Shown: in pieces, positions 1 to 14,506 of the stretch
Layout: each line of letters starts with the position of its first letter
How positions within the stretch are numbered: position 1 is the first letter of the stretch
Assembly: GCA_045614865.1 (NCBI GenBank)
Contig: JAZLDS010000002.1
Location: 4,252 to 68,251 of the forward strand
DNA length: 64,000 nt
DNA from: Paludibacteraceae bacterium
Lineage (GTDB): Bacteria; Bacteroidota; Bacteroidia; Bacteroidales; Paludibacteraceae
Direction: 5' to 3'
Program-made: the position numbers and the translations under genes
Notes under the pieces: model-generated
Told to the model about the DNA's origin: nothing
Seen by the model: only the letters and a program-made list of their open reading frames with translations
Databases searched by the model: none

Positions 1-52
1 ACTCATCACTCATAGTTCATAACTAACATCTTCCCTCATAGTTCATAACTAA
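1..52. repeat. junction repeat, A-box copies (one full, one partial)
   Basis: ACTCATCACTCATAGTTCATAACTAA at 1-26 and CTCATAGTTCATAACTAA at 35-52, just downstream of the ATPase gene stop (70). Confidence 0.9.
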
Positions 53-69
53 ACAGTAGGGGCACCCGC

Positions 70-1404
70 CTACAATAGTCCCGTCATATACACCGGTAGG
101 CATTGCAAAGCATTTTCATGGGTAGAATCTTTTGTATGAAGAATGTAAGGAGTTCCTACTCTTTCACTAAATCGTTGTACAAACTGATCTATAGATGAAT
201 GGGTTCTATAATTACTTGATTTGACCTCTATTGGACAGATCTTCTTGCCACGAGATAGCAAAAAATCTACCTCATAGTAATGTTTTTCGTCCTTTTCAAA
301 TGTATAATAAAACAATCTATTTCCCGAGGCAACCAACATTTGTGCCACAAGATTCTCATATACATATCCCAAGTTGGCAGAAAACTTATTGGATAAGAGT
401 TGCGTATAAATAGTATTTTCCGTATAATCTTTATCCCAAAAAGCTAAAGTAACGAACAAACCTGTATCACACACAAACATCTTGTAGTAGTCATAATTGG
501 CGGATAATGACATCCCTACAGTTGGATCATTTGCGTGATATGCTAAGCGAACCACTTGACTATCCTCCATTTGTGCCAACATTTCCGCTAATCTATTTTC
601 CGTAACCTCACCTATTACACTTGAAGGTACATAACGCTTCGCATTTCTACTTAGTTGCGCAGGAATAGCAGTAAACAATCGAGAAATACGACCTGTAGAA
701 TCTATCTTGCGAAAATCTTCTGCATAGAGTGTAAGAATTTCACGCTTCATAGCATCAACTTGAGATAGATTATTAGTCTCCAAATATGTTCTCACTGCCT
801 GAGGCATACCTCCTACCAACATGTACAACCGCAAATCACGCATCAAACTACGATGTGCTTGACCGAATCCACGGCGAGCTTCAAATTGCTGACGAATAAG
901 TGACATAGTTGTATTGTCGCCTAAAGCCCAAAGAAACTCTTCGTAGTCAAGTGGATGTAAGGTTACATGATGTTCTTCACTTGGGATGGTGATATCTTTC
1001 GTATTCTTATGCAAACGAATCAAAGAACCCGTCTCAATGTAGTCATACCGCCCATCCTGAACGAGGTACTTAATTGCTTGGCGAGCGCGTGGACACTGTT
1101 GCACCTCGTCAAACACAATTACTGATTGGCGTTTATGCAGCGAAATATGGTAATGTGCCTGAAGATTAAGGAAGAGAGTATCCAAATCAGAATAATCGTC
1201 AAATAGTGAAATTATATGCTTAGGTGCCATATTGAAGTCTATCACTATTGCCGACTTATATTCTTTTTTAGCAAACTGATTTACTAAGGTGGATTTACCT
1301 ACACGACGTGCACCTTCCACCAACAAGGCAGTACTACCATTGCTTGATGATTTCCAATCAAGCATAGTATCATATAACTTTCGCTTAAAAATAGGTGTTG
1401 CCAT
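70..1404 (-). CDS. AAA+ ATPase of the AAA_14/DUF4143 type (ATP-binding protein)
   Basis: 444-aa ORF with ATG start. Walker A GARRVGKST and Walker B-like VIVFDEVQ. Layout resembles the multi-copy DUF4143 ATPases of Bacteroidales. Own TAATTTTG box lies upstream. Confidence 0.8.
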   Translation of the reverse strand: MATPIFKRKLYDTMLDWKSSSNGSTALLVEGARRVGKSTLVNQFAKKEYKSAIVIDFNMAPKHIISLFDDYSDLDTLFLNLQAHYHISLHKRQSVIVFDEVQQCPRARQAIKYLVQDGRYDYIETGSLIRLHKNTKDITIPSEEHHVTLHPLDYEEFLWALGDNTTMSLIRQQFEARRGFGQAHRSLMRDLRLYMLVGGMPQAVRTYLETNNLSQVDAMKREILTLYAEDFRKIDSTGRISRLFTAIPAQLSRNAKRYVPSSVIGEVTENRLAEMLAQMEDSQVVRLAYHANDPTVGMSLSANYDYYKMFVCDTGLFVTLAFWDKDYTENTIYTQLLSNKFSANLGYVYENLVAQMLVASGNRLFYYTFEKDEKHYYEVDFLLSRGKKICPIEVKSSNYRTHSSIDQFVQRFSERVGTPYILHTKDSTHENALQCLPVYMTGLL

Positions 1405-1429
1405 ACGCTCATTTATTAGAATTTCGCCA

Positions 1430-1437
1430 CAAAATTA
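1430..1437 (-). promoter_or_regulatory. Bacteroidota -7 box TAATTTTG (ATPase gene)
   Basis: The reverse complement of CAAAATTA matches TAnnTTTG, about 25 nt upstream of ATG 1404. Confidence 0.6.
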
Positions 1438-1510
1438 CTATTTTTTTTTGACACCACAAAACAAAAACACAAAAAAACGATTATTCTATTGATTTTCTGC
1501 ACTTTAACAA

Positions 1511-1594
1511 TTTCCCCCAAAACTTTTATATGCCAAATCACATATTTCCCCAAAACTTTTACACGCCAAATCACCCGTTTCCCCAAAACTTCAG
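1511..1594. repeat. 33-bp tandem repeat, about 2.5 copies
   Basis: TTTCCCC(C)AAAACTTTTAYAYGCCAAATCAC at 1511-1544 and 1545-1577, with a partial copy at 1578-1594. It lies about 75 nt upstream of the ATPase -7 box. Confidence 0.9.
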
Positions 1595-1661
1595 CCTTTA
1601 CACTCTACACCTAGCCAGAAACTTCAACTGGTTAGTGGCACTAACCACTTCATTTCTCATT

Positions 1662-1723
1662 ACTCATCACTCATAGTTTATAACTAATAAGTGCTATCAC
1701 ATTAATTTATGTATTTAAGGGGA
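1662..1723. repeat. junction repeat (A-box plus degenerate hairpin part)
   Basis: ACTCATCACTCATAGTTTATAACTAA at 1662-1687, then CTATCACATTAATTTATGTA. It ends at the stop codon of the 1724-2263 gene. Confidence 0.85.
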
Positions 1724-2263
1724 TTAGAAATAGGTATATAATATGTAATCTTTATTGGCAGTGCGTTTGAGGTGATCCCCAAAGCATAGCAGAGGGATAC
1801 TTATTGATACTAATGAACTGCCGACTCCTAAGAGGGCTACTCCTGCCGCTTGCTTAGTTGGTTCTGTGTTACATGCAAAGATCGTTCCAATTATACATAG
1901 AGGGAGTCCAATACTAATAATCGGTGCACCAGCCTTAGAGAGTTGTTTTCCTAAGATATATTCATCGTATATCACTTTAGGGATTTGTATGGTTTCAGTT
2001 GTGGAATGGTGTGTTATAAATTCTTTTTGAGTTCCATTTAGATCTAGTAGCCAATTGCCATGTTTAGTTTCCATCCACTCTCCATACTCAGTGGATCTAT
2101 TGATACTCACTTTCAGTTCGTCAAAGCAGATCGTATTGGCAATCCTACTGGTATCTGTTGCTATTACTTTATCGGAAATTATATTTCTTAGTTGGTCGTA
2201 AGATTGCGCCATCATAATTACAGCATTCATCATCAACGCTAGTACTAGTAAAATCTTTTTCAT
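1724..2263 (-). CDS. hypothetical secreted/membrane protein
   Basis: 179-aa ORF. Signal-peptide-like N-terminus MKKILLVLALMMNAVIMMAQS and two C-terminal hydrophobic helices. No family recognised. Confidence 0.5.
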   Translation of the reverse strand: MKKILLVLALMMNAVIMMAQSYDQLRNIISDKVIATDTSRIANTICFDELKVSINRSTEYGEWMETKHGNWLLDLNGTQKEFITHHSTTETIQIPKVIYDEYILGKQLSKAGAPIISIGLPLCIIGTIFACNTEPTKQAAGVALLGVGSSLVSISIPLLCFGDHLKRTANKDYILYTYF

Positions 2264-2300
2264 ATCGTATTATTTTTCGGTTAATATTCTATTGTTTATC

Positions 2301-2374
2301 ACTCATCACTCATAGTTCATTCATAACTAAACTCCACCTTATCACAATATCACATGGAAATATGTGTTGGAGGG
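2301..2374. repeat. junction repeat (A-box + B-box + CACAT/ATGTG hairpin)
   Basis: A-box 2301-2330; B-core CTCCACCTTATCACAATATCACA 2332-2354; CACAT-N6-ATGTG 2351-2366. It ends at the stop codon of the 2375-3052 gene. Confidence 0.95.
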
Positions 2375-3052
2375 TTATTTCTTTTTATACGATTTGAGTT
2401 GGAACTTCACTTTGTACTTGCGATCGGACTGAGAACTCATCACATCGCTTTTGTAATAGGCATAATGGTCTTTATATCCATATCCTTCCAATTCAAAACT
2501 TTTAACAAAACCAGGTTCAATTGTTACTGCTTTTGTGAAGTCTTTATAATCCAACATATTACCAGACATATCGTAATAAATAATACGTCCCGTTACAGAT
2601 GTGATGGTTTGCGCGGTATTATTTTTGAGAGCAACCGTTGCCCTTGATTGCACCCAATCATGCGAATAATTGGCCAATGTCACATCATTAGCACTAACGG
2701 TTGTAGTCTGAGGTGTAGCGGTCGTAGCAACAGGCTGGGTGGTAGCAGTTGCTGCTGGCTTCGTTGTAGTTTGGGTTGTTTTTGCAGGTGCAGCGTTAAT
2801 TTTCTTAGCTAGTTCGTCGCGTAACTGTGCCACTTCGTTTTGCAACTGTTTCAATTGATTATTTACATCATTCCATTGTGCTTCTGTTACAACGAACTTC
2901 TCTTCTTGGACTACAGTAACCGATTCTTCATCTGTTTGAGAATCCGCTTCAACCTGTGGTATAAACCAGATAATCAAGAGTCCAACAAGAACTACAAGTA
3001 CCAAAATTAATGTCAATCCTCTTCTTGGTTTTTCTGTGTATTCTTCTCTCAT
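2375..3052 (-). CDS. hypothetical membrane-anchored coiled-coil protein (possible FxLYD-like C-terminal domain)
   Basis: 225-aa ORF. N-terminal TM segment [19 protein letters not shown], coiled-coil [19 protein letters not shown], Thr/Ala/Pro-rich linker, and a beta-rich C-terminus with IIYYD. The domain call is tentative. Confidence 0.5.
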
Positions 3053-3137
3053 AATTGTATTTTATTTTTTGGTTAATATACTAAACACTCAACAGTAGCA
3101 GCTCCGCCGCGTCCTCTAAACAGGCGCTCCGCGCCCT

Positions 3138-3214
3138 ACTCATCACTCATAGTTTATAACTAAACTCCACCTTATCACACTATCACATGAAAAAATGTGT
3201 TGAGGGGGGATTAT
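3138..3214. repeat. junction repeat (A-box + B-box + hairpin)
   Basis: A-box 3138-3163; B-core CTCCACCTTATCACACTATCACA 3165-3187; CACAT-N6-ATGTG 3184-3199; then a G7 tract. It ends at the stop of the HNH gene. Confidence 0.95.
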
Positions 3215-4420
3215 TTAGCAATAATCATCTATACTATCTGGACCATCCCATTCTTTATCTTGTGCTCTTGTATATGCTGCACGTACACCATTCTCTTCAA
3301 AGAATGTACCTTTAGATGTATGCACAAATACTTCTCCGTTCCATTCAATCTTAGACAAAGCAAAATGCTTTACTCCGTTTGGTATCTTTGTTGAGACAAT
3401 GATGTTATCTTTGTATAAGGTAAACTCAAATACAGTAGATTCTCCATAATTAGCAGTTACAAAAACTTTCCCTTCTTTCAAATTTCTCAAGTAATCTTGT
3501 AACGGTTGATCTGAAATCTCTGTAGGACAACAGGGGAACTCTGGGTTTGTATGTGGAGACCATCCAGTTTGAACAGCAATATCATTAGATGTTTTATAGT
3601 AAGCAATCTCATTTTCATCAGCTTTTTCTTCAATCTTTTGATTTTCTTCTTTCTTACTATATTCTTTGAGAAACTCTTCACCCCAAAAAGTAGCATCCAT
3701 TTTCGTTGGATCAATTGGTTCTCCCCAACCATCTTCCATCTTGTTACCACCATCATACTCTAATGGCTTACCCCAGACATCGTATTTTACTCTGGAAGGA
3801 GCTTGTATATCCGTCTTTAATGGAGCTATAGCATTTGGAATCCATGTACTAATTTTTACATTATATATCCAATCACCTATGCCTCCTGTATGTGTATTGT
3901 TTTTTATCAAATGCAATTCATGTAAATGCTTAAGATTATTGAAACATATTCTTGCTTCTTCCGCTGTTACTGCACTCATCCATGATATATTGGTATCTTG
4001 AGCACGCTGTGCTAATATTTTAGGATTCTCTATAAATTCTTGCAATGTACAATAATAAAGAATCTTTTTAAGTGTTAGTGGATTATTAAGTGCATTCTCT
4101 AGTTTGGTTACCCACCTTAGATTTTCTGGTCGATTATTCTGTCGATTGGTATCAATATGATCTACAACCATCTGATCATTTTCTGGTTTTCCAAGAAATG
4201 CAAATGCTACGACACGATGAACAACCTCTCCACAAAAAGCACAATATCCTTTATCGTTAGGGTCGCCAAATGTCCAAATATTATCCTTCGGACGAACTCT
4301 TGTGGTCTTGGGATGGCGCATGATAGCACCATTATCCCTCACGGAATAATGTTCACCTTTGTAGTCACATTCTCGGACTTCGGTAAAGGTATTTAGAAGT
4401 TGTTCTAATCGGTCGGTCAT
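3215..4420 (-). CDS. HNH endonuclease (HNH_3, homing-endonuclease-like) with long C-terminal extension
   Basis: 401-aa ORF. Motif VVDHIDTNRQNNRPENLRWVTKLEN sits in the N-terminal third, as in I-HmuI-type phage HNH enzymes. The roughly 280-aa C-terminal part is unassigned. Confidence 0.75.
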   Translation of the reverse strand: MTDRLEQLLNTFTEVRECDYKGEHYSVRDNGAIMRHPKTTRVRPKDNIWTFGDPNDKGYCAFCGEVVHRVVAFAFLGKPENDQMVVDHIDTNRQNNRPENLRWVTKLENALNNPLTLKKILYYCTLQEFIENPKILAQRAQDTNISWMSAVTAEEARICFNNLKHLHELHLIKNNTHTGGIGDWIYNVKISTWIPNAIAPLKTDIQAPSRVKYDVWGKPLEYDGGNKMEDGWGEPIDPTKMDATFWGEEFLKEYSKKEENQKIEEKADENEIAYYKTSNDIAVQTGWSPHTNPEFPCCPTEISDQPLQDYLRNLKEGKVFVTANYGESTVFEFTLYKDNIIVSTKIPNGVKHFALSKIEWNGEVFVHTSKGTFFEENGVRAAYTRAQDKEWDGPDSIDDYC

Positions 4421-4433
4421 AGATTAATTTTCT

Positions 4434-4471
4434 TTCACCTTATCACACTATCACATTAAAATATGTGTTGA
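4434..4471. repeat. junction repeat (B-box + hairpin only)
   Basis: TCACCTTATCACACTATCACA 4435-4455; CACAT-N6-ATGTG 4452-4467. It ends at the stop of the GIY-YIG gene. Confidence 0.95.
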
Positions 4472-5299
4472 TTACAAAATCACTAACTTATCTAAAATTT
4501 CACTTTTATCTCCAGTATAATCCTTAGCAACACACCAATTATAACCATAAGCAGATTTTTGCAATCCCTTAATTACATTACGAACATTCTCTGGTCGCTT
4601 TACACCGAAATATTGTGCAATTTCATTGAATGAGGTAAAAGCATTGCAAATTTTGTTTTCGTTATCTAACTGAATAATAGCATTATCTGACCAATATTCG
4701 GTTAATAAGAAGTATTCATTCTCTTTAATATACTCATCTGTTTCATCTTCGGCATCTGTTATCATAATATGCCATGAAAACTCTTGGGCATGCTCTTCCA
4801 TCATTTCACCTTTTTTCCCGTAGAAAGGATTGTTATCCTTCCAATAATGATCGAAGATCTTTTGTTCTCCATATGTCAAAGTACTACCTGCTATTTGTTT
4901 CTGTAGTATTGGGACATACTCCTCAAATTTTCTATTATAAATATCGTGGAACACTCTGCGATAAATATCTTCAAGTATCTCTTTGTTTGAAGCAGCAACA
5001 GTACCTTGGCTTTTTCTATTATACCCATAATCTTTACAATCAGCCTTGTGCAATTGAATCCAATAAGTCTCTCTTTTATTCAGTTCTTCAATGAGAGCTT
5101 GTGTACTATCATTTTCTATTGTTTCAATAATTTCATATTTAGGTTCTCCTAAACGTTTATAAGCCTCCCAAAAACCGCCATTCATTGGGCCAATCGTTTC
5201 ACTAAGATGCTCCTTATGCCTAATTTCAGGATCACGTCTAGTCTGACCAATGTATACTTTATTGTCAGAGAATGTGTATTTATAGATATAGCCTTTCAT
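4472..5299 (-). CDS. GIY-YIG nuclease (I-TevI/Seg-like free-standing endonuclease)
   Basis: GIY-YIG core GYIYKYTF..VYIGQTRR..RHKEH..ETYWI at the N-terminus. C-terminal NUMOD1/HTH-like FNEIAQYFGVKRPENVRNVIKG. The ORF-track start 5323 is a GTG inside the junction repeat, so ATG 5299 (MKGYIYKY) is preferred. Confidence 0.75.
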   Translation of the reverse strand: MKGYIYKYTFSDNKVYIGQTRRDPEIRHKEHLSETIGPMNGGFWEAYKRLGEPKYEIIETIENDSTQALIEELNKRETYWIQLHKADCKDYGYNRKSQGTVAASNKEILEDIYRRVFHDIYNRKFEEYVPILQKQIAGSTLTYGEQKIFDHYWKDNNPFYGKKGEMMEEHAQEFSWHIMITDAEDETDEYIKENEYFLLTEYWSDNAIIQLDNENKICNAFTSFNEIAQYFGVKRPENVRNVIKGLQKSAYGYNWCVAKDYTGDKSEILDKLVIL

Positions 5300-5316
5300 G
5301 GTAATTATTCTGTTTG

Positions 5317-5359
5317 ACTCCACCTTATCACACTACCACATTAAAAAATGTGTTGATAT
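5317..5359. repeat. junction repeat (B-box + hairpin only)
   Basis: CTCCACCTTATCACACTACCACA 5318-5340; CACAT-N6-ATGTG 5337-5352. It ends at the stop of the DUF2075 gene. Confidence 0.95.
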
Positions 5360-7414
5360 CTATATCTCCTTCACCCCTAGTTGCTTCAAATACTCATATG
5401 TTCCATTATAGAACGCATGATTGCGGGTTGGATCTTCTTTAGAACCCTCCGGCACGCAAATCACCATACCTTGACGTGCTCGAGTCAACAATACACGATA
5501 GGCGTTGAGTAAGTATGCTTTGCGGTCGTCCTTGTTGATTCTATTCCATTTGGTTCCGCCACTAAATTCGTAGAAAGCCCAATCGTTATCCTGACGACGT
5601 AAATCACCATCCCATACAAGGCATGTCCAATCCAATTCAAGACCTTGCACATCAAACTCAGAAGCAGCATCCTCCAAGAACAAAGAAGAACGTACATCAT
5701 TAATATCATCCAAGAACCAATGGACTGTATCCGGCTTACAACGAACATCAATAGCCAATGGCTTCAATCGATATGCTTTAGATGATACAAGCAAACCATA
5801 ACGCTCATTTCCGCGTGCTCGCTCACGGAGCCAAGCTTTGGCTTTGTCTAAATCTCTAGTTAAAACGATAGGGTATCGGTCTGCTATCTGAGCATACGTA
5901 TCACGAGCACTATCAATATCTCCATCAAGAATATAATGTACAATATGAGATAAACTCTCAGCACGGAAGCTACGCATAGAAACAGCCAAGTGCAAGTCCT
6001 CGGAGAATGTGACACGAGGATTATCCGACAGCAACTCCTTCACCTTTCCTTCGGCATACTCTTTGGCGGTCAGCTGGCTAGAGATATACACATTCCAATT
6101 AGGGAATGTTTCATTGAGTGCGCGAATCCATTCGCCGATACCCGCTTCGCCTGTATTAATTTCTTGTCCACCACCTACTAGACAAACAATGACTGCCCAG
6201 TCTGGACGTTGATCAAGCGACCAAATAAGGAATTCGCTTTCGGACATCGGGAAATCAGCAAAGCCCTTTTTACGCTTCAACCAACCAGCAATATGCTCTT
6301 TGTCCCACGAGCGTTGCGCCTCATCAAAGATAGCTATATTCTCCACCTCGCCATAACCAGCTGTCTGGTCTTTGAGCTCTTTGGTAGGGTCGATAACCAG
6401 TTGTCCGTTTTCCAGCATTACTTTGCTGAGCATATTATCACGATAGCGGTGGATAATCTGAATAAAGCGTTTTACCTCTCGTTCTGCTTCTTTCTTAGTA
6501 ATCTTATTGCCCTTTGCTTTCTTTTGCGCTTGTTTATCACGCGTGAGTGCTTCGGTAAGAACTTCTACCAGCGGACCATTACCGGACAAATAGACAGCTA
6601 AATCTTGGTCTTCCTCTTGCTGTACAGCCACGTTGAGTCCAACGAGCGTTTTACCAGCACCTGGAACTCCTGTTACAAAGCAAATACTCTTGCCTCTTTG
6701 CGCTTTGGTCTGACGGATGACGTCTTGTACGTATCGAGTAGTATTATCCAATTGTGCGCCTTCAGATTCGTGTTTAGTAATATCCGCAACACTATGATTA
6801 AGATAAAGCGAACGTGCCGCTTCTATGATAGTGGGCGTAGGTGCATAGCGACTACGAGCCCAATCGGACATGGCAACGGCATAGGTTGTAGATATCGCGT
6901 TTTCAGACAACACAAGAGCTATTGCGTCTGACAAATACTCCGCATTAGTCATCATTGGCTCATAGATGCCGTCATCATAATGTGAAGGTTGGCACAACGT
7001 AGCATAAGAATTGCTGTCAGTCGCTACGAGAATAGGAACGATAGCACGATCCACGCTACCTTGATGGAAATTCTTAAGGTCGAGAGCATAGTCTAAGACT
7101 TGATCTACGTCATGACGAAGGAAATTCTCCTCGCCTGCCTTGAACTCAATAACGAATACGCGTTCACGAAGCAAAAGAACTACGTCTATGCGTTTACCTA
7201 AACGGGGAATAGTGTATTCGAAAATGATTTGCCCTACTTCGTTAGCGTAAGGTACAAGAACAGACTTCATGATGTCGATTTCTTGTGACCATGCAAACTT
7301 CTGGGTAGAGGCGGTATCCATCTCATCCGCACGAGCCATGACACCAAATATCTGGTCTGTATTCTCAGACAAGAAAGTAGCGATATCTGCTTGATAAAAG
7401 AATCTGTTAGTCAT
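5360..7414 (-). CDS. DUF2075-type nuclease-helicase (Schlafen-like P-loop NTPase with N-terminal PD-(D/E)xK-like module)
   Basis: 684-aa ORF. RIDVVLL..VFVIEFK (nuclease-like), Walker A GVPGAGKT, Walker B-like IAIFDEAQ, and UvrD_C-like YRVLLTRARQGMVICV. TAACTTTG box lies upstream. Confidence 0.8.
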   Translation of the reverse strand: MTNRFFYQADIATFLSENTDQIFGVMARADEMDTASTQKFAWSQEIDIMKSVLVPYANEVGQIIFEYTIPRLGKRIDVVLLLRERVFVIEFKAGEENFLRHDVDQVLDYALDLKNFHQGSVDRAIVPILVATDSNSYATLCQPSHYDDGIYEPMMTNAEYLSDAIALVLSENAISTTYAVAMSDWARSRYAPTPTIIEAARSLYLNHSVADITKHESEGAQLDNTTRYVQDVIRQTKAQRGKSICFVTGVPGAGKTLVGLNVAVQQEEDQDLAVYLSGNGPLVEVLTEALTRDKQAQKKAKGNKITKKEAEREVKRFIQIIHRYRDNMLSKVMLENGQLVIDPTKELKDQTAGYGEVENIAIFDEAQRSWDKEHIAGWLKRKKGFADFPMSESEFLIWSLDQRPDWAVIVCLVGGGQEINTGEAGIGEWIRALNETFPNWNVYISSQLTAKEYAEGKVKELLSDNPRVTFSEDLHLAVSMRSFRAESLSHIVHYILDGDIDSARDTYAQIADRYPIVLTRDLDKAKAWLRERARGNERYGLLVSSKAYRLKPLAIDVRCKPDTVHWFLDDINDVRSSLFLEDAASEFDVQGLELDWTCLVWDGDLRRQDNDWAFYEFSGGTKWNRINKDDRKAYLLNAYRVLLTRARQGMVICVPEGSKEDPTRNHAFYNGTYEYLKQLGVKEI

Positions 7415-7433
7415 GGCGTTTCTTGTTACCCCG

Positions 7434-7441
7434 CAAAGTTA
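7434..7441 (-). promoter_or_regulatory. -7 box TAACTTTG (DUF2075 gene / cassette array)
   Basis: TAnnTTTG match about 20 nt upstream of ATG 7414. No comparable box is seen upstream of the four downstream cassettes. Confidence 0.6.
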
Positions 7442-7502
7442 CTACTTTTTTCGCAATAATCCAAAAAAAAGGACTAAATTTCTAAATTTAGACCTTCTTT
7501 CG

Positions 7503-7525
7503 CTCCACCTTATCACAATATCACA
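7503..7525. repeat. junction repeat B-core (outermost copy, upstream of the DUF2075 promoter)
   Basis: CTCCACCTTATCACAATATCACA, followed directly by the 71-bp repeat/terminator at 7528. Confidence 0.9.
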
Positions 7526-7527
7526 AG

Positions 7528-7598
7528 AAAAAAAGAGCGAAATACTCTTTTTTTAGTTTAGTGGACGGACCAAAGGTCCTACGGTTTAGGGTTTAGAG
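7528..7598. repeat. 71-bp repeat, copy 1 (A/T-flanked hairpin + GGACC-AAA-GGTCC hairpin + GTTTAGGGTTTAGAG)
   Basis: 62 of 71 positions are identical to 12180-12250 by hand alignment. Confidence 0.9.
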
Positions 7599-7604
7599 AC
7601 GAAG

Positions 7605-7663
7605 GGACGGCTGCGCCTATTGGACGCTGCGCTAATGGATAATGTACGGCGTGCCGCCTAATG
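7605..7663. repeat. three degenerate GC-rich repeats GGAC(G)GCTGCGC(C)TAATG
   Basis: GGACGGCTGCGCCTATTG, GACGCTGCGCTAATG and TACGGCGTGCCGCCTAATG. Related single copies occur at 10491-10508 and, inverted, at about 3092-3108. Confidence 0.8.
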
Positions 7664-7738
7664 GGCGATGAGGCAAAAGGCGAGGGGTGAAAGGTGAGAA
7701 AAATGGAGAATCGGCTCAAAAAGGTCGATTTTTTTGCA

Positions 7739-7765
7739 ATTATCGGCTCAAATTGAGCCGATAAT
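7739..7765. repeat. perfect 27-bp palindrome ATTATCGGCTCAA-A-TTGAGCCGATAAT
   Basis: 13-bp arms around a single central A. An extra half-site ATCGGCTCAA lies at 7710-7719. Confidence 0.95.
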
Positions 7766-7943
7766 CCAAATATTTTTTGTGATTTTGCACCGATTTACAA
7801 AAAAGACTATGGAAACAGCTCGTGAAATACTGCAATTTTTGTACTTGTACTTTCGCGCAACAATTCTCCTGCGCTGTAAATATTACCTATATGCCTCGTA
7901 ATAACAGACTTGGGGTGCTTTCGTGGGAGATATACACCAGCGA

Positions 7944-7976
7944 GAAAAAGAAATCGCCCCACGTTGGAGGCGATCG
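7944..7976 (-). terminator. intrinsic terminator of the NTase-phosphoesterase gene
   Basis: Stem ATCGCC/GGCGAT (7953-58 / 7969-74), followed on the minus strand by TTTCTTTTT. Confidence 0.6.
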
Positions 7977-8004
7977 GTTATATTCATGGTGATATGTGTA
8001 ACAA

Positions 8005-9486
8005 TTAAATATCTATATGACGTGCTGGATCAAAGCCGTTATGATGGTGCTCGCCGTGAGATATATAACCGAGTTGGTTGGAGAGAATTCGAGTACCACC
8101 TATCTGCGCATCTATATTACGATGCGAGTGGCCATAAATCCAATAGTCGATTCCTGAATCAACTATATACTCGCCCAACTCCACCGTAAAGGCTCCGCTG
8201 ATCGTACTACCACAGAACTCCTGTGCAGTACACAGATGTGTTGGCACATGGTGAGTAAGAACAATCTTGGTCTTAGCTTTACTCTCTACTACTGCCTGCT
8301 GGATAAATTGAAAACAACGTGCATGTTCGCGATTGAAGTCTTCGGCAGTCAAACGATGACCATTGTACTTAATTCGGTAGAAATCACTCACATTACGCTC
8401 AGTAAGGAAAGCATCACAAGGTTCGATCTTTGACCAAAGAGTAGAAATAATGATATCTATATCGCCAATCGAAACCACACTATTGTAGTAAGCATGGACA
8501 TTGTGGCGAATCTGACGGCAATAACCATCAGGCATCGTAGAGAGATCATAATGCGCATAGAAATCGTGATTGCCGAGGCAAACGATGACTTGCTGATAAT
8601 GTCTCGATGCCCAATCCCAAAAACTATAACTACCATAAGTATCGAGGTCCGAATCTGGCAAATCAAGATATGCGCTATCACCAGCGATAAGTAGAATATC
8701 ACCCGTTACTTGCAGCGGATGATCTTGCAGGTATTGTCGGTTTTGCGGGAACTCCAAATGCAGGTCGCTTACAAACTGAATCTTGAGGATTGGTGCTTGG
8801 TAGGATGCGATAGACTGAAGAATATCCAAAATCAAATCGGTACGCTCTATCTCTTCAGGAGTAATAGCACATTCAATCTCCTCTGTTAGATTAGGACGCT
8901 TGAGCATAGTCGCAAACTGTTGAGCCAAATAAGACTTGACCTGTCCTGTTTCTGCATTGAACTTATCGACGAACTCCGTACAATAGTTCAGCACATAGAC
9001 AATATCCTCAAAATCGTTAGCTCCGCGCCAATCCGAACCTCCACGAGAGAGAAGTGCATCAATCTTAGTTGCTACGTAATAAGTCACAGGAAGGCGATAG
9101 ATCTCTTGACCAGAAGGCAGAGCATACAACTCGCGATGAGCAAAACCTAGTTCATACCAACGGTTGCCAAACGAAAGACTTTGTTCGTTCATAGACATAA
9201 CATCTACCATCTCGCCATTATACACCCAACGGCAAATCACAGGCGGTTCAGAATCGTGATCGTTCTGAAAATGTTTCTTGCGGAGCAATTGCTCAAAAGC
9301 TGCATGCTCGGCATAGGAGTTGGAATCTACCACACAATCCACATCAATAGTAGTACGTGGTTCGGTAGCCGCAGGATCGGTAGCATATGCTCCTGCCACA
9401 GCTCCACCCACATAGACCAATCGTTCATTGAGTTCTTGCATGGCTGAAGCTATATACTGCAAGCGTTCGTTATTGGTTCTCTGCAT
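8005..9486 (-). CDS. fusion protein: AbiEii/MNT-like nucleotidyltransferase + calcineurin-like metallophosphoesterase
   Basis: N-terminal half has the NTase signature YVGGAVAG...TIDVDCVV. C-terminal half has all five phosphoesterase motifs (SDLHLE, AGDSAY, GNHDFY, LTHHVP, GHSHRN). The ORF-track start 9591 lies inside the upstream gene. ATG 9486 overlaps the upstream stop by 17 nt; ATG 9441 is an alternative. Confidence 0.7.
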   Translation of the reverse strand: MQRTNNERLQYIASAMQELNERLVYVGGAVAGAYATDPAATEPRTTIDVDCVVDSNSYAEHAAFEQLLRKKHFQNDHDSEPPVICRWVYNGEMVDVMSMNEQSLSFGNRWYELGFAHRELYALPSGQEIYRLPVTYYVATKIDALLSRGGSDWRGANDFEDIVYVLNYCTEFVDKFNAETGQVKSYLAQQFATMLKRPNLTEEIECAITPEEIERTDLILDILQSIASYQAPILKIQFVSDLHLEFPQNRQYLQDHPLQVTGDILLIAGDSAYLDLPDSDLDTYGSYSFWDWASRHYQQVIVCLGNHDFYAHYDLSTMPDGYCRQIRHNVHAYYNSVVSIGDIDIIISTLWSKIEPCDAFLTERNVSDFYRIKYNGHRLTAEDFNREHARCFQFIQQAVVESKAKTKIVLTHHVPTHLCTAQEFCGSTISGAFTVELGEYIVDSGIDYWIYGHSHRNIDAQIGGTRILSNQLGYISHGEHHHNGFDPARHIDI

Positions 9487-9988
9487 AGTTTTGGATTCGT
9501 TTGTTGAGTTCTGCAATTGCAATGGCTTTTTCGCGGGCGCGACCCATACGGAGCGTATCCACAATAACAAGCCATTGGTATAGTTCTTCATCTCTTAAAG
9601 CAGCCTGCAAAGCGGTAGGATACAGCGGTTCGATCTGTTGACCACGCGCTGTGCCTTTAACATCGTGCCATACATAACTATCAGAAGTAGAGGTGAGTTG
9701 CTCTTTGATAGGCGATGCACTCACATAGGCAGGTACACCACGCCCAACTCTGCCAGCCTGCACAGGAAAAACATACTGCACACCATGAATAAGAAACTCC
9801 TGAAGCGCCAAAGTGTTGACACGTTTCTTGTTGCGGTCAACCAGTTGTGCATTTTTACTTCGCTCAAGGCTCTCACTAACACTGGAGGGGTTCATACCTA
9901 AAGACGCAGCTAATCCACGACAAGAAAGATCTTTGCCATCTTGCGTCATTTTTTTTAAAAGAACCAATAAATCTTGCGGTTTCATCAT
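9470..9988 (-). CDS. winged-helix (MarR/AbiEi-like) DNA-binding protein
   Basis: wHTH-like LSCRGLAASLGMNPSSVSESLERSKNAQLV in the N-terminal half. The ORF-track start 10000 is TTG, so ATG 9988 (MMKPQDLL) is preferred. TACCTTTG box lies upstream. Confidence 0.6.
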   Translation of the reverse strand: MMKPQDLLVLLKKMTQDGKDLSCRGLAASLGMNPSSVSESLERSKNAQLVDRNKKRVNTLALQEFLIHGVQYVFPVQAGRVGRGVPAYVSASPIKEQLTSTSDSYVWHDVKGTARGQQIEPLYPTALQAALRDEELYQWLVIVDTLRMGRAREKAIAIAELNKRIQNYAENQ

Positions 9989-10052
9989 TTTATATATCAA
10001 TGGTTTATAGAAAAGTGTTATCCGTTCGTGAACAGATTACACGAATCCGCTG

Positions 10053-10060
10053 CAAAGGTA
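10053..10060 (-). promoter_or_regulatory. -7 box TACCTTTG (wHTH / NTase-phosphoesterase operon)
   Basis: TAnnTTTG match about 65 nt upstream of ATG 9988. Confidence 0.55.
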
Positions 10061-10524
10061 CTACAAAAAATGCACATATGCAAGTAAAGTGAGAAAATTT
10101 ATAAGAAAATAATAGATTTAGAATCTATTTGTACGGATTTCATCGCACTATAGGAGCTCGATCATGATAGTGAGAATGAAAATCAGCACAAAAAGGCGAA
10201 GCCGATTTTCTTATAAATTTGCGCGCGAACTTGCATATGGGCTGCATCGCGCGAACGTAGCTACGAGGGAATTGGCATCAGCCAAGGCAGATGTTCGAAG
10301 GTACTGCTTTTTATTGATATATGCAAGAAAATAATGAAATTATTTGTATTTTAAAAGTGTTTTTCATGAAATCATGCTGAAAAAACTGCGCAAATTTAAA
10401 GTTGCACTTTAAGATTGCGAAGATTTTGCGTGTACCAAAGGCGCAGGGTAGAGTGTAGGGTGTAAAGGCAGGCGCAAGCGCAGTTTAGAGGACGGCTGCG
10501 CTACAATTTAGAGTTTAGAGGCAA

Positions 10525-10556
10525 TAAAAAACCACCGCCCACAAGAGGCGATGGTT
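10525..10556 (-). terminator. intrinsic terminator of the Bro-N gene
   Basis: 10-bp stem AACCACCGCC/GGCGATGGTT (one G-T pair), with a T-run on the minus strand. Confidence 0.7.
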
Positions 10557-10572
10557 GTCTATTGAGAAGTAT

Positions 10573-11415
10573 TTATTCTTCTATAGGTTTTATTTCCTGC
10601 TCAGGCAGATAGTCAGTTGCTTTCGCCGAAGATATAACACTATGACCTAAACGTGCCTCTATCTCCTTGCGGGTATTACCTGCAATAGCACCACCCTCTT
10701 TAGCTACCTTAGCACTCGCACGGAATCCCTGTGGATTGCTCTGTTTGTGCAACTCCGCCGTAGTAATCTCAGCCAATGTATTGAGTGTCAATTCCAAATT
10801 GGTCATATTATCACGGAGGCTCTCCTTATGCAAACCCTTATGGCGTTTATACTCGCCTACTGTCTTACCGCTCCATGCTTGGGTGATGATATTCGTGAGC
10901 GATGCATATTGTTGCCCCTCTTCTACACCTGCACGCTTCCATTCGTCTGTCAACTCCTTGCGCACCTCAATGGAACGAATACGCTGATTGATCCATTTAT
11001 CGGAATATCCTAAACGTGCATAATCAGCGATGGCTTGTTGAATGGAAAGTTCTGGGTCTTGCAACTGATCCAAACGGTCAGACGCCACCTTAGCCATCCA
11101 TTGTTTGAACGGCTCGGCTTTAGGCGATGGCACCGATTGGATAATACGGAACAATTGCTCTTGATCGGCAACATCAGAGAGATAACGCTTACCGTCTGCG
11201 GCAAGCAATTTCAGTTGGTTACAATTTGTAACCGACTCGTTTCCCTCTTTCTTTAGTCGGTTTTTCAAGACCTTCCAATAATTACGAGGCGTAGGGCTAT
11301 CCGTTAAAATAGCGATTACATCCACTACAGAGAAGTACCACTTCTCTTGCACATCGTCCCAAATAGTGCGTACATTGCGCTCTTCAAAGAGTTGTATAGA
11401 TTGTTTCTGAGTCAT
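10573..11415 (-). CDS. Bro-N domain protein (phage antirepressor/DinD-like)
   Basis: 280-aa ORF. VRTIWDDVQEKWYFSVVDVIAILTDS..RNYWKVLKNRL..SPKAEPFKQWMAKV resembles Bacteroidales Bro-N proteins. It has its own promoter box and hairpin terminator. Confidence 0.7.
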   Translation of the reverse strand: MTQKQSIQLFEERNVRTIWDDVQEKWYFSVVDVIAILTDSPTPRNYWKVLKNRLKKEGNESVTNCNQLKLLAADGKRYLSDVADQEQLFRIIQSVPSPKAEPFKQWMAKVASDRLDQLQDPELSIQQAIADYARLGYSDKWINQRIRSIEVRKELTDEWKRAGVEEGQQYASLTNIITQAWSGKTVGEYKRHKGLHKESLRDNMTNLELTLNTLAEITTAELHKQSNPQGFRASAKVAKEGGAIAGNTRKEIEARLGHSVISSAKATDYLPEQEIKPIEE

Positions 11416-11444
11416 ATATATTCATTTCTGTGACCTTTGCGCTG

Positions 11445-11452
11445 CAAAGGTA
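11445..11452 (-). promoter_or_regulatory. -7 box TACCTTTG (Bro-N gene)
   Basis: TAnnTTTG match about 30 nt upstream of ATG 11415. Confidence 0.6.
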
Positions 11453-11478
11453 CAACATTTTTTTTATATTTCCAAATT

Positions 11479-11673
11479 CTAGAAATCATTATCCTCATAC
11501 GAATCCCAACCAGACATGCCATCGTTGTCATAGTCGCCACAATCCCAGTCCTCGCGAGAGGTCCAGTTGCCCGAACCTTGGACGCGATGACGACGACTCT
11601 CGCTAATGCTGCGATAATCCTCCCCGTTGAATTGATTAGAGGAGTCATCAAATAAAAAATCAAATAGTCCCAT
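11479..11673 (-). CDS. hypothetical very acidic small protein (64 aa)
   Basis: ATG ORF 41 nt downstream of the HIRAN gene stop on the same strand. Asp/Trp/Ser/Gly-rich (DWDCGDYDNDGMSGWDSYEDNDF). No family recognised; it may not be translated. Confidence 0.4.
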   Translation of the reverse strand: MGLFDFLFDDSSNQFNGEDYRSISESRRHRVQGSGNWTSREDWDCGDYDNDGMSGWDSYEDNDF

Positions 11674-11714
11674 TCTTGTTTAATGTTTAGAGTGTAGTGT
11701 TTAGAGAGATGTGA

Positions 11715-12050
11715 TTATGCTTCCTTCGCTTTTACAAAAATGCCAATATGCACTTGCTGTTCGGGATAGGCAGTAGGGTCGAGACCCTGCACATACACCT
11801 CAAACAAATCGCCATGGCCCATATCTAGCATAGAAGCCAGTTGCTCATTTTTGCTAGCAGGTACGTATCCGATATGCGTATCCCCATAGAAAATAGCTAC
11901 TGCATCATGGTCATAAGCATTCTCATCCTCACGAACCAATCGCAAAAGAGTACCAATCTTCAAATCATTAAACACCATACAACCCTCATAATGAGCGAAA
12001 CCTGCTACGTTGCAACTAACTAAGAGTTCTTTCTGTTTTTTAATCTTCAT
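11715..12050 (-). CDS. HIRAN domain protein
   Basis: 111-aa ORF with VAGFAHYEG..LVREDENAYDHDAVAIFY..HIGYVP, typical of stand-alone HIRAN domains. TAATTTTG box lies upstream. Confidence 0.7.
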   Translation of the reverse strand: MKIKKQKELLVSCNVAGFAHYEGCMVFNDLKIGTLLRLVREDENAYDHDAVAIFYGDTHIGYVPASKNEQLASMLDMGHGDLFEVYVQGLDPTAYPEQQVHIGIFVKAKEA

Positions 12051-12127
12051 AATCGTAAAATTGAAAAGTTTAACATATAGACTCCACCAAAAAGACCCAA
12101 AAATAGCACTTTTTCTGAAATCCGCTG

Positions 12128-12135
12128 CAAAATTA
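12128..12135 (-). promoter_or_regulatory. -7 box TAATTTTG (HIRAN operon)
   Basis: TAnnTTTG match about 78 nt upstream of ATG 12050. Confidence 0.5.
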
Positions 12136-12179
12136 CTACATCAAACTGCTAAAACTTGTCATAAGCTCAAAAAAATGCA

Positions 12180-12250
12180 AAAAAAAGAGCGATTTGCTCT
12201 TTTTTTAGTTTAGTGGACGGCACAAAGTGCCTACTGTTTAGTGTTTAGAG
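12180..12250. repeat. 71-bp repeat, copy 2 (A/T-flanked hairpin + GGCAC-AAA-GTGCC hairpin + GTTTAGTGTTTAGAG)
   Basis: Same orientation as copy 1. It forms the 3' region of the NlpC/P60 transcript. Confidence 0.9.
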
Positions 12251-12287
12251 GAGAACCGTTATTAACCGCTTAACCGCCTAACCGATA

Positions 12288-13196
12288 TCAAAAATAACGC
12301 TTGATCTGAATAAGGTCATGGGTCTTGGTGCCATCTGAGAGATAAATACCATCGGCATCAATCCGGTCAATATGCACACGGCCTCCCGCACAATGGATAA
12401 TCTCCGTAGGACTCAACAACAATCCTACATGCGTGATCCTAATGGCCAGTGTTTCGCTGTCAGTATAACCAAAAAAGGCTAAATCACCTGGCAAAGCCTC
12501 CGACAACAACTTGACCTCCTCACCCTGCGTGATCTGCTCGCGCGCATTGCGCAAGATAGTCACCCCCACAGCCGCATACACCACCTGCGTGAAACCCGAA
12601 CAATCGAGACCCATCGCATTCTTACCACCCCAGAGATAAGGGGTGTTGAGCAATGTTTGCGCAATGGCGCAAACCGTTTCTCGCCTCATCGCCTCATTGC
12701 CTTTAGCTTCTGGCCTTACACAAGTGGAATCGATGAGGTATTGCTGACCAAGGACCTCGAAGGTGCCCTGGGAGTAGTTGGGCAAACGGGTTCCGAGGGT
12801 GAGTAGCAAAGGGGTTCCGCCGTTGATAGGTGTGGCAGTGGCTATAGGATGGGCAACGACAGCGTCTAGGCGATCAGGCGAAAGGCTAGAGGCGATAACG
12901 CTAGAGATAGGGGTGAGCATGGAGGAGGAGACCCAGCCCACTTGGCCGTCCATAGTGTTGCGGATCTTGGTCCAACCGCGGTGACGCTCAATGAACTCAC
13001 ATACTTCGCCAAAGAGCAGTTGAGTGGCTTGCTCAGCGGAATAAGATGGACTCTCACGCACAGGACACACGGTAGCATTAGCCACAAGGTATTGGACCGT
13101 ATCGGAGGTGACAGGCGCAGAATCTTCGGCCGTAGTATATGGACATGCTAAAAGCAGGCAAAGAGATAAAAGACAAAGTTTAATGGATGGTTTCAT
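12288..13196 (-). CDS. NlpC/P60 (C40) peptidase with SH3b-like domain
   Basis: Signal peptide, SH3b-like middle region, catalytic GLDCSGFTQVVY and downstream ITHVGLL. Confidence 0.85.
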   Translation of the reverse strand: MKPSIKLCLLSLCLLLACPYTTAEDSAPVTSDTVQYLVANATVCPVRESPSYSAEQATQLLFGEVCEFIERHRGWTKIRNTMDGQVGWVSSSMLTPISSVIASSLSPDRLDAVVAHPIATATPINGGTPLLLTLGTRLPNYSQGTFEVLGQQYLIDSTCVRPEAKGNEAMRRETVCAIAQTLLNTPYLWGGKNAMGLDCSGFTQVVYAAVGVTILRNAREQITQGEEVKLLSEALPGDLAFFGYTDSETLAIRITHVGLLLSPTEIIHCAGGRVHIDRIDADGIYLSDGTKTHDLIQIKRYF

Positions 13197-13311
13197 AAAC
13201 GACAGCTATTTTGACGACAATACCGACAATTTTATTTCAACAATAATGACAATTATTTTTGTTATAAAGAAATCTGTGAATAATCCGTGAGATCTGTGGG
13301 GAAAATTAGCA

Positions 13312-14403
13312 TCAACGAACACTGACACCTGTGCCAGGTTTGTCCACCAAGGTCAGTTTGCCCTCTACGATTTGTATGCCCTCGTATGGGTCATTGCCCA
13401 ACAACACATGTCCATCTAAATCGGCATAGTCCACCAGCGCACTCAGCGTGGTTGCTGCGGAGATACCTGCACTAGTTTCCGTCATACAGCCAATCATCAC
13501 TTGCATACCCAACTCACGTGCCAAAGTGATCATCTTGCGTCCCTGAGCTACGCCGCCACATTTCATGAGCTTGATATTGATGCCATCGTAGTATGGTTGC
13601 AATGCAGCCACATCGTCGTAGGTCTGGCATGCCTCATCTGCGATAATAGGCAGTTCCACCTGCTCGCAGAGCCAACGATGCTCCTCGTTCATATGCTTAG
13701 GCATAGGTTGCTCGATGAGCACCACGCCTTGCTCTGACAGCCATTGGCACATCTTCAACGCATGCTCTTGGGTTGGCCAGCCTTGGTTGGCATCTACATA
13801 GATAGGTTTATCGCTAATGCTGCGGATGAGGTTGATCATACGTTTGTCCTCAGCCTCCTCACGGCCAAGTTTCACCTTGAGGATCTTCGCCCATTCGGCT
13901 TCGCGCACCTTGAGTAGCACCACCGAATCGGAGGCATCGTAGCCGATCGTATAGCTGGTGCAAGGAGTAGCATTAGGGTCGATATCCCATAGTTGCCACA
14001 ATGGCTGACCCTCTAGTTTGCCATAAAGATCGTGCAAGGCGATATCGATACTAGCTTTCGCCGCATGATTGCCTGGTGCGAGGGCGTTGACGAGTTGCAT
14101 GATACTATCCACATTGAGTGGAAGGCTGCAGTTGTTGATGACAGGTTCGGCTAATTTGAGGAAAGCACAAACGGACTCTTGGGTCTCTACCAAATAAGGA
14201 GGAAGAGCCGCTTCGCCGTAGCCCGTCTGGCCGTCGAGGGTGATGCGGGTAAGCACGATAGGAGTGGTGGTGCGGGTGTTGGTGGAGATACCAAAAGCAT
14301 GGCGCAACACGCCAGTAAAAGGTTCGTAACTCAGCTGTGCTGTCTTCTCGCACGACTGGAAGATCAATGCCACTACAATGGCTAGGAATAGGATGCGTTT
14401 CAT
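13312..14403 (-). CDS. dipeptide epimerase (L-Ala-D/L-Glu epimerase, enolase superfamily)
   Basis: Motifs KVKLG, YVDANQGW, LIEQP, IIADEA and IKLMKCGG. It sits next to an NlpC/P60 gene, as in the ykfB/ykfC arrangement. Confidence 0.85.
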   Translation of the reverse strand: MKRILFLAIVVALIFQSCEKTAQLSYEPFTGVLRHAFGISTNTRTTTPIVLTRITLDGQTGYGEAALPPYLVETQESVCAFLKLAEPVINNCSLPLNVDSIMQLVNALAPGNHAAKASIDIALHDLYGKLEGQPLWQLWDIDPNATPCTSYTIGYDASDSVVLLKVREAEWAKILKVKLGREEAEDKRMINLIRSISDKPIYVDANQGWPTQEHALKMCQWLSEQGVVLIEQPMPKHMNEEHRWLCEQVELPIIADEACQTYDDVAALQPYYDGINIKLMKCGGVAQGRKMITLARELGMQVMIGCMTETSAGISAATTLSALVDYADLDGHVLLGNDPYEGIQIVEGKLTLVDKPGTGVSVR

Positions 14404-14416
14404 AATATTATTTGGG

Positions 14417-14437
14417 GTGTAGGGTGTAGAGTGTAGG
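14417..14437. repeat. 7-bp tandem GTGTAGG/GTGTAGA/GTGTAGG
   Basis: Three exact head-to-tail units directly upstream (minus sense) of the epimerase start. Confidence 0.95.
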
Positions 14438-14500: not shown

Positions 14501-14506
14501 ATTTAC

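Follow-up and report, generated by a model that had tools for sequence, protein, structure and literature searches.

Short repetitive elements that lie between exchangeable genes are known from several systems. Among the Bacteroidales they occur in the recombinase-associated acquired interbacterial defence arrays termed rAID-1 (Ross et al. 2019, bioRxiv 10.1101/471110; PMC12247911), while T4-type phages carry the mobile regulatory cassettes termed PeSL (Arbiol et al. 2010, PMC2839356; PMC4122927). Integrons, the repetitive extragenic palindromic (REP) sequences and bacterial interspersed mosaic elements (BIME) of enterobacteria, and pdif modules offer further points of comparison. Here, we consider a stretch of 64,000 nucleotides from a Paludibacteraceae bacterium (assembly GCA_045614865.1, contig JAZLDS010000002.1, positions 4,252 to 68,251; hereafter, the window), in which unrelated defence-type genes are separated by one conserved intergenic linker, while the same genes and linker alleles are found recombined in other genomes. 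Comparison loci are referred to by the prefix L.

The parallels to rAID-1 are numerous: the host order is the same, and both consist of co-oriented, mostly short, low-GC genes with repetitive intergenic motifs, strain-variable content and an integron-like impression. Like rAID-1, which is defined by at least two co-oriented downstream genes with a GC content of ≤41%, the array in the window lies on one strand and has a GC content of 34.5-39.8% over positions 1-6000. However, rAID-1 arrays begin with a XerD-like tyrosine recombinase at their 5' end (>44% identity to BF9343_RS08045), whereas no recombinase is found at the 5' ends of the window array (an NlpC/P60 gene, then the island) or of L019 (OPT, then the array), nor elsewhere in the window's island. 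Their cargo consists of orphan immunity genes, whereas here it comprises HNH and GIY-YIG endonucleases, an SLFN-type helicase and a DUF4143 ATPase, mostly PADLOC phage-defence candidates. The rAID-1 motif has been published as a figure only; what the linker shares with it is the presence of a repetitive motif, a likeness by description. PeSL are similarly short conserved intergenic cassettes flanking non-essential open reading frames (ORFs) in hypervariable regions, they are exchanged by recombination between copies without a dedicated integrase, and, as in the present arrays, the repeats delimit the insertions, deletions and replacements that distinguish close relatives. A PeSL nevertheless combines a strong promoter with a terminator stem-loop and resides in phage genomes, whereas the linker has neither and sits in a bacterial chromosome. 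Only the head junction of the array (7434-7553), with its terminator and promoter, is PeSL-like in composition.

With integrons, including sedentary chromosomal ones, the arrays share strain-variable, promoter-less, co-oriented cassettes, a repeat at or overlapping the stop codon, lineage-homogeneous repeats and defence cargo, although there is no IntI, attI or Pc at the array head. An attC site is an imperfect palindrome of 57-141 nt that has extrahelical bases and contains two boxes, R'' (RYYYAAC) and R' (GTTRRRY), whereas the linker core is ~45 nt long with a stem of 4-5 bp; by reading, CTTCAAC resembles R'', but it has no GTTRRRY partner in the linker. Nor is there a single fixed cassette boundary, as the truncation points of the B-core, a conserved 23-nt segment of the linker, vary. 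An earlier note on this DNA had suggested an integron-like shuffle, and in the strict sense this does not hold, since an integrase, an attC architecture and a fixed crossover point are all lacking. REP and BIME elements are likewise mosaics of short motifs in transcribed 3' intergenic regions, and closeness to stop codons matters for the effects of REP on translation. They are, however, genome-wide structured palindromes with a 5' GTAG in hundreds of copies, whereas the linker has no copies outside arrays in the sequence examined and no supported structure; separate GTAG-hairpin units in the island are more REP-like than the linker itself. Modules of the pdif type and integrative mobile elements exploiting Xer (IMEX) are small, bounded by 28-bp-type sites (inverted arms, 6-nt spacer) and devoid of their own recombinase gene. 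The sites of pdif modules alternate in orientation and are located on plasmids, whereas the linkers are all direct and chromosomal, and the similarity of their arms to dif appears weak.

Aligned across junctions as one unit and read on the gene strand, the linker runs TAA-T-C(3-10)-(T)TCAACACAT-N6-ATGTG-RTAKTGTGATAAGGTGGRG and is 45-77 nt long. Its motif words are TGTGATAAGGTGG plus the hairpin CAACACAT-N6-ATGTG, which is followed by RTAK and an invariant TGTGATAAGGTG, while the long form consists of the core unit plus TTTAGTTATRAACTATGAGTGATGAGT, thereby adding an optional 26-nt A-box that ends in ATG AGT GAT GAG and a stop codon. The earlier note had described a two-part repeat, B-core and A-box, at every junction of a six-gene array. 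The B-core, hairpin and A-box are indeed where it had placed them: the B-core CTCCACCTTATCACAMTAYCACA (23 nt) occurs on the plus strand at 2332, 3165, 4433 (with 2 mismatches), 5318 and 7503, compared with 0 matches in 100 dinucleotide-preserving shuffles; A-boxes stand at 1-26, 27-52 (a partial copy), 1662-1687, 2301-2330 (where 4 nt are inserted) and 3138-3163; and beyond four of the B-cores, at 2351, 3184, 4452 and 5337, stands CACAT-N6-ATGTGTTG, ending 1-12 nt from the stop codon on its right. The repeats are therefore real, but they form a single linker starting at or with the stop codon rather than two parts. The sixth junction (1694-1726) carries the element too, albeit only as a degenerate hairpin half and an A-box, and the six genes, which do form a co-oriented set, are continued rightwards to ~12255 by accessory genes without a B-core.

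From the window and related loci, we assembled 21 non-redundant linker copies, 20 of which are co-oriented with the genes, on the coding strand, while the copy in L004 is inverted relative to both neighboring genes. The stop codon of a long ORF lies 1-19 nt before the left arm in 17 of the 21; it is TAA in 16 of these 17, and in at least 11 of them, unrelated ORFs are terminated by the unit's own TAAT. The next start codon follows at a variable distance, ranging from 15 to >70 nt. The A-box contains a mini-ORF, MSDE*, at 3138-3152, 2301-2315 and 1662-1676, with TAG, TGA or TAA as its stop, and in L019 (8801) the ATG of this mini-ORF is the start of a 256-aa NERD protein, which indicates that the linker is able to supply both a stop and a start codon. 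In 14/14 copies drawn from several species-level genomes, the TGTGATAAGGTG segment is unchanged. The B-core has three alleles (ATAG, ATAT and GTAG) that are common to different genomes, and ~40 nt of the linker show 85-90% identity between genomes in which orthologous proteins share 60-90%. The N6 spacers vary among adjacent copies (TTTTTA, ATTTTA, TTTTTC, ATTTCC). On the gene strand, the left half contains 2.5% G and the right half 1.3% C, compared to local values of 22% G and 17% C. Half linkers exist as well, with the right half alone present at window 7499-7533 and in L006 and the left half alone in L010 and L029 (9197). In the junction alignment, neither terminal inverted repeats nor target duplications were found at the linkers, and antisense ORFs beginning in the hairpin loop are not conserved among copies. 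The GTGGTAGTGTG allele (TGTGGTAGTGTG; window 5337-5347 and the GTAG-allele copies of L002, L004, L005, L010 and L018) resembles the Escherichia coli ops antitermination element, GGCGGTAGCGTG, with agreement at 9/12 positions, which may be a lead to its role; other alleles have GATAG in place of GGTAG.

Three window proteins had no exact record in protein look-ups, so near relatives were used instead, and the comparison arrays were obtained through those of the HNH protein. L019 contains, in order, the head, a helicase gene, a 62-aa ORF, a linker, NERD, a 121-aa ORF, a truncated linker, HNH, a 190-aa ORF, a linker, Bro-N, LRR, Bro-N, a 236-aa ORF and RhuM, whereas L018 contains a PD-(D/E)XK nuclease gene, a 186-aa ORF, a linker, HNH, a linker, 192-aa and 199-aa ORFs and a housekeeping mutase gene. 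The helicase block of the window is 86% identical to that of L019, with homology stopping inside linker J1 at 5334, beyond which the next gene is GIY-YIG in the window and the 62-aa ORF in L019; the helicase heads the array in L019-L023 too. Homology of the HNH gene with L019 (92.5% at the nucleotide level) is exactly ORF-long (3214-4420), and this ORF recurs with ORF-exact boundaries in three contexts. The 77-nt linker J3 is 92% identical to L019 8736-8813, which separates different genes, and this single 77-nt allele is found between HNH and the 225-aa gene in the window, between HNH and the 192-aa gene in L018, and between the 62-aa ORF and NERD in L019. The 225-aa gene is itself 43% identical to a gene elsewhere in the L019 array, and the positions of Bro-N, the 225-aa gene and DUF4268 differ from array to array. 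The head junction likewise precedes other genes in L006, L002 and L041 (in L019 and L041 it has no B-core insert), and one Paludibacteraceae metagenome-assembled genome (MAG) has it before a type I restriction-modification operon, with linkers after a PD-(D/E)XK gene and a 130-aa gene. Mean linker identity is 90% within the window versus 88% between genomes, and with alleles common to genomes, concerted evolution within a genome is not seen. Judging from these comparisons, the linkers bound cassettes whose content differs between strains and species, in line with one of the two readings of the earlier note. The genes change while the linker persists, and the linker thus marks where cassettes are exchanged.

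The features of the array, of the remaining island and of its border are as follows (junctions J1 to J5 are numbered from the head).

1-52, minus strand: tandem pair of A-boxes (1-26, 27-52), located downstream of the DUF4143 gene; at this end the array extends past the window edge.
70-1404, minus strand: AAA_14/DUF4143 ATPase gene, PADLOC PDC-S01 candidate defence gene with its own promoter (Pfam, PADLOC).
1430-1437, minus strand: TAnnTTTG -7 promoter box upstream of the DUF4143 gene.
1662-1726, minus strand: degenerate linker J5, with stop TAA, TCCCC and AATACAT-AAATTA-ATGTGATAG; B-core deleted; A-box 1662-1687 (profile E 0.13).
1724-2263, minus strand: 179-aa cassette gene, the N-terminus of its product signal-peptide-like and hydrophobic as read from the translation; no Pfam or PADLOC family.
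2267-2290, minus strand: A-rich leader, common to 3056-3080 and to small genes in L019 and L018.
2301-2377, minus strand: full linker J4, with stop 2375-2377, CCCTCC, hairpin 2351-2369, B-core 2332-2354 and A-box 2301-2330 (58.6 bits).
2375-3052, minus strand: 225-aa cassette gene with a hydrophobic stretch near the N-terminus as read from the translation; no Pfam family above the curated cut-off.
3138-3217, minus strand: full linker J3, with HNH stop 3215-3217, TAAT-C6, hairpin 3184-3202, B-core 3165-3187 and A-box 3138-3163 (63.3 bits).
3215-4420, minus strand: HNH_3 endonuclease cassette, PADLOC 'HEase' (homing endonuclease) (Pfam, PADLOC).
4433-4474, minus strand: short linker J2, with stop 4472-4474, hairpin 4452-4470 and B-core truncated after AAGGTG.
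4472-5299, minus strand: GIY-YIG endonuclease cassette with directly repeated linkers on both sides.
5318-5362, minus strand: short linker J1, with helicase stop 5360-5362, hairpin 5337-5355 and B-core 5318-5340.
5360-7414, minus strand: SLFN-g3/DUF2075 helicase gene, PADLOC PDC-S41, the first gene behind the head promoter (Pfam, PADLOC).
7434-7553, minus strand: head junction, with -7 box 7434-7441, solo right half and B-core 7499-7533 and terminator hairpin 7527-7553.
7528-7603, minus strand: terminator and REP-like unit, repeated at 12180-12255 (86% identity).
7604-12255, minus strand: remaining island without a B-core, with Metallophos 8005-9591, a 176-aa ORF 9470-10000, Bro-N 10573-11415 and HIRAN 11715-12050.
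12288-13196: NlpC/P60 gene adjoining the island border.

The gene families (AAA_14/DUF4143, HNH_3, GIY-YIG and the SLFN-g3/DUF2075 helicase) and the leader shared by 2267-2290 and 3056-3080 are as they had been named beforehand, and the same is true of the promoters: within junctions, TAnnTTTG occurs on the gene strand only at 1430-1437 and 7434-7441, upstream of the last and first gene, and the middle junctions have no Bacteroidetes promoter box. The GIY-YIG gene most likely starts at ATG 5299, as its 275-aa product is then 100% covered by a 97%-identical relative. The B-core copy at 7503-7525 is a solo right half between the canonical terminator hairpin (7527-7553) and the promoter.

The array forms part of a low-GC defence island (~1-12255), which is inserted after the conserved NlpC/P60 gene and has a GC content of 35-40% in the array versus 48-52% in the adjacent core genes. 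The core block of LPG-synthase, GH77, epimerase and NlpC/P60 genes is syntenic in relatives. Those with an 82-86% identical NlpC/P60 have no island and instead a convergent MerR gene directly after NlpC/P60, whereas in the closest relative (93%) this site is occupied by an island of other genes. In the window, PADLOC assigns the majority of the island genes to candidate-defence families (PDC-S01, S41, M21A/B, S13, M03B and homing endonuclease), and the Metallophos gene (528 aa) with its overlapping 176-aa ORF (8005-10000) matches the two-gene candidate system PDC-M21B/PDC-M21A. HIRAN, Bro-N and the Metallophos pair are joined via promoter-type junctions rather than the linker. A second standard junction is a conserved promoter cassette, ...CTGACAAG(A/T)3TAGCAGTTTG-N8-TAnnTTTGCAGC, which in several genomes precedes HIRAN, Bro-N, RhuM and further genes of the island (window 12095-12140; L019 12080-12140, 14590-14640 and 16340-16400; L041 3870-3915; L010 4180-4240). 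The REP-like units (window 7556-7603, 12208-12255, 3090-3125 and 10470-10500; L037 10960-11000) read CTAAAC-N-GTAG-[3-5 bp stem, 3-nt loop]-CGTCC(A/T)CTAAAC on the gene strand, with varying stem sequence and pairing kept. Relatives lacking the island have them too, in the core intergenic region that follows NlpC/P60, and one such unit immediately precedes the start of the island. Upstream of the DUF4143 ATPase gene, a 33-nt unit is repeated in tandem in 2.5 copies (1510-1591), and in L002 (2440-2570) a 61%-identical orthologue has three ~33-nt repeats of other sequence (GCAGAAATCCGTAAAT...) in the same place; such repeats may be regulator-binding arrays. A weak tRNA-like match (10088-10150; 25.6 bits, gathering score 29), located where a long junction separates the Bro-N gene from the PDC-M21 pair, may be the relic of an attachment site. 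Further along the window, the last 60 nt of a tRNA-Met gene (18305-18364) are repeated at 28353-28412 with 95% identity, and the 10 kb between them have a GC content of 28-36%. This segment (18277-28412) encodes an HTH protein, WYL_2, a serine resolvase (20089-20757), an MmeI-like type IIG restriction-modification enzyme (20885-23881) and a tyrosine integrase (26948-28192), and is a defence element integrated at tRNA-Met, separate from the cassette array. In L037-L039, an RmuC gene adjoins the LPG-synthase gene on the side that holds tRNA-Met and this element in the window.

Within the sequence examined, the linker is confined to such arrays. All window copies lie at 1-7533, and a profile search of the unit found none in 7534-64000; the earlier note had named a generic genome-wide repeat as the outcome that would speak against it, and within the window this is not the case, the other 56 kb being free of copies. 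Neither were linkers found in the housekeeping flanks of L019, L018 and L036-L042, nor outside arrays in the loci examined. An exact 20-nt scan of 185,579 species genomes yielded 10 stretches, of which ~5 are true copies, these all from Paludibacteraceae MAGs, JGI metagenomes contributed two true copies, and the named relatives of module-bearing loci are Paludibacteraceae MAGs only. Such small numbers within one family argue that the linker is rare and lineage-restricted rather than a generic intergenic repeat. Neither the B-core nor the A-box had any match in exact scans of IMG/VR, and BLAST searches brought up nothing relevant for the linker in plasmids or for the array in phages, on which grounds we reject a phage or plasmid origin. 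Also rejected were L001, L003 and L008 from Bacteroides, in which GTGATAAGGTGG words belong to single long inverted repeats rather than arrays, and the exact matches L007, L009 and L012-L016, in which both the hairpin and the remaining module are missing, and which resemble matches arising by chance or from low complexity. In the Bacteroides loci (L001 3355-3445, L008 660-750, L003 720-800), GTGATAAGG(T/C)GG and GTGATAAAGTGG are the two arms of one long inverted repeat, a B-core-like vocabulary in a different architecture. In the literature, searches with the motif as text returned unrelated primers only, and no paper was found on integron-like cassettes in Bacteroidales defence islands.

The linker was also envisaged by the earlier note as an RNA processing or termination module, a view that its structure does not bear out. 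The consensus fold has a 4-bp stem (-2.1 kcal/mol) with 0 compensatory changes and mismatches in 8/20 copies (arms read by eye), the z-scores of whole-module folds range from -1.6 to +0.4, and an outer helix between the C-run and GGTGG, with 77% of cells paired, is no better than in shuffles. With no covariation and such z-scores, we do not regard an RNA hairpin as the selected feature. An intrinsic terminator is rejected as well, since the CACA/TGTG stem of 4-5 bp is AT-rich and followed by RTAKTGTG with no U-tract, while a canonical terminator stands nearby at 7527-7553. In the suggested Rfam search, no family reached the gathering score anywhere in the window, and even at E<=5 no match within 1-12400 overlapped a linker. 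What is conserved is primary sequence, not structure.

Several explanations of the linker have to be weighed. It could act in the transcript or during transcription, with cassette variability being incidental, and this we regard as rather doubtful. Possible roles would be anti-polarity or antitermination for promoter-less genes, the tuning of translation termination and re-initiation, or an RNase site. The placement of the linker suits them well: it starts at the stop codon, its own TAAT being the stop after unrelated ORFs, 20/21 copies are on the coding strand, the linker-bearing junctions are without promoters, and the A-box mini-ORF always ends in a stop, with its ATG starting NERD in L019. 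The composition is strand-specific and bipartite, with a G-free left and a C-free right half, the C-poor right half presumably making a poor Rho substrate. The resemblance of the GTGGTAGTGTG allele to ops may point the same way. Yet no RNA structure or Rfam match supports such roles, the distance to the next start codon is not fixed, and other polycistronic junctions of the same arrays do without the linker. Alternatively, the linker might be a site-specific recombination site for a recombinase encoded elsewhere (host Xer or a rAID-type XerD-like enzyme), which seems unlikely. The proposed core is an imperfect inverted repeat, (A)ACACAT / ATGTGRT, with a 6-nt AT-rich spacer and an extra direct TGTGATA as an accessory site, and the cassettes would behave as integrase-less IMEX or pdif modules. 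Arms of 7 nt around a 6-nt spacer are the typical geometry of tyrosine-recombinase core sites. The linker has this 7-6-7 arrangement, its arms are conserved as sequence rather than structure, half sites exist and all sites are in direct orientation. Precedents within the Bacteroidales count in its favor too, as a XerD-like recombinase and repetitive intergenic motifs occur together in rAID arrays (10.1101/471110) and the use of dif-like sites has been proposed for integrase-less proviruses (PMC3091885). On the other hand, the spacers of neighboring copies are unlike, breakpoints do not fall at a single position, and no recombinase was found at module-bearing loci except an rve insertion-sequence transposase in L021, a result that covers, by Pfam search, window 70-18159 (ORFs of ≥60 aa) and the larger ORFs flanking the linkers in L002, L004-L006, L010 and L018 and, by the precomputed families listed, L018-L029. 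The tyrosine integrase and resolvase of the window belong to the separate tRNA-Met-flanked element.

It is quite improbable that the linker has no function of its own, be it as a non-autonomous repeat resembling REP or miniature inverted-repeat transposable elements (MITE) inserted after stops or as ancestral intergenic DNA copied along. The island is indeed rich in other short words (REP-like GTAG-hairpin units, GATGAG tracts, and A-boxes alone, in tandem or inverted), the linker decays by deletion in many junctions, and the L004 copy is inverted relative to its neighboring genes. Such passivity is nonetheless hard to reconcile with an invariant 12-nt core, ~40 nt that are 85-90% identical across genomes, the lack of terminal inverted repeats or target duplications, and the lack of copies outside arrays in the loci examined. 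A highly improbable explanation is that the HNH and GIY-YIG homing-type endonucleases encoded in the array target the linker and would spread by cutting endonuclease-free linkers. Both endonuclease genes do lie directly between linkers, the HNH ORF has ORF-exact boundaries in its three contexts, PADLOC labels HNH as 'homing endonuclease', and one source names the GIY-YIG relatives group I intron endonuclease. Homing, however, leaves its target unduplicated, whereas GIY-YIG has a complete linker on either side, and linkers also flank cassettes in arrays with no endonuclease gene in the visible part, such as L005.

Our favored, if tentative, explanation, to which we would give somewhat less than an even chance, is that the linker is a cassette-junction element and that recombination between its copies swaps genes, comparable to the PeSL cassettes of phages and the rAID arrays of Bacteroidales. 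The linker would be the standard junction of a horizontally acquired, low-GC, defence-type gene array in uncultured gut Bacteroidales, whose genes would be co-transcribed from a few promoter-bearing junctions. A cassette would consist of one or a few genes plus a linker and would be gained, lost or replaced at linkers, whose copies would provide directly repeated, portable homology for recombination. The outcome would presumably be integron-like or PeSL-like, without a linked integrase. Furthermore, as the linker is strongly conserved in primary sequence but not in structure, it may also be read by a protein or by the translation or transcription machinery. Recombination between linkers, a recombinase acting in trans and a role in RNA or translation are not mutually exclusive.

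A number of observations weigh against gene exchange at the linkers. No excision product, empty site or circle was seen, though circles need read-level data or PCR, and crossovers within linkers cannot be placed by BLAST because linkers resemble one another. The B-core is truncated upstream of HNH after AAGGTG, TGTG or GTG and elsewhere in the loop or after GGTA, and such variable truncation points are as compatible with deletions as with recombination. Some arrays are built from these gene families (Bro-N, LRR_5, GIY-YIG and AAA_14; HTH-HNH) but have no linker (L043-L052, L032-35), which means that the linker is not required for such arrays. Moreover, a shared 45-77 nt at ~88% identity is short for RecA-type exchange, and adjacency to stop codons together with strict co-orientation is equally well explained by a role at the RNA or translation level. 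A more far-reaching version, which we consider distinctly unlikely, is that the defence islands of some gut Bacteroidales are built by an integron-analogous cassette system without a linked integrase, in which the linker would give the stop and, in its long form, the start codon and would be read by a trans-acting recombinase or the host recombination machinery, such that single defence genes are captured and shuffled with precision, ORF to ORF.

Defence islands are known to be mosaic, while the entry and exit of single genes remain mostly unexplained outside of integrons. If the linker is an exchange site, it would represent a simple, recombinase-independent (or trans-recombinase) mode of cassette capture in the Bacteroidales, the dominant gut order, and would provide a connection to the unexplained intergenic motifs of rAID arrays. 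If it is instead an expression element, it would constitute a new intercistronic signal in a phylum without Shine-Dalgarno-led initiation.

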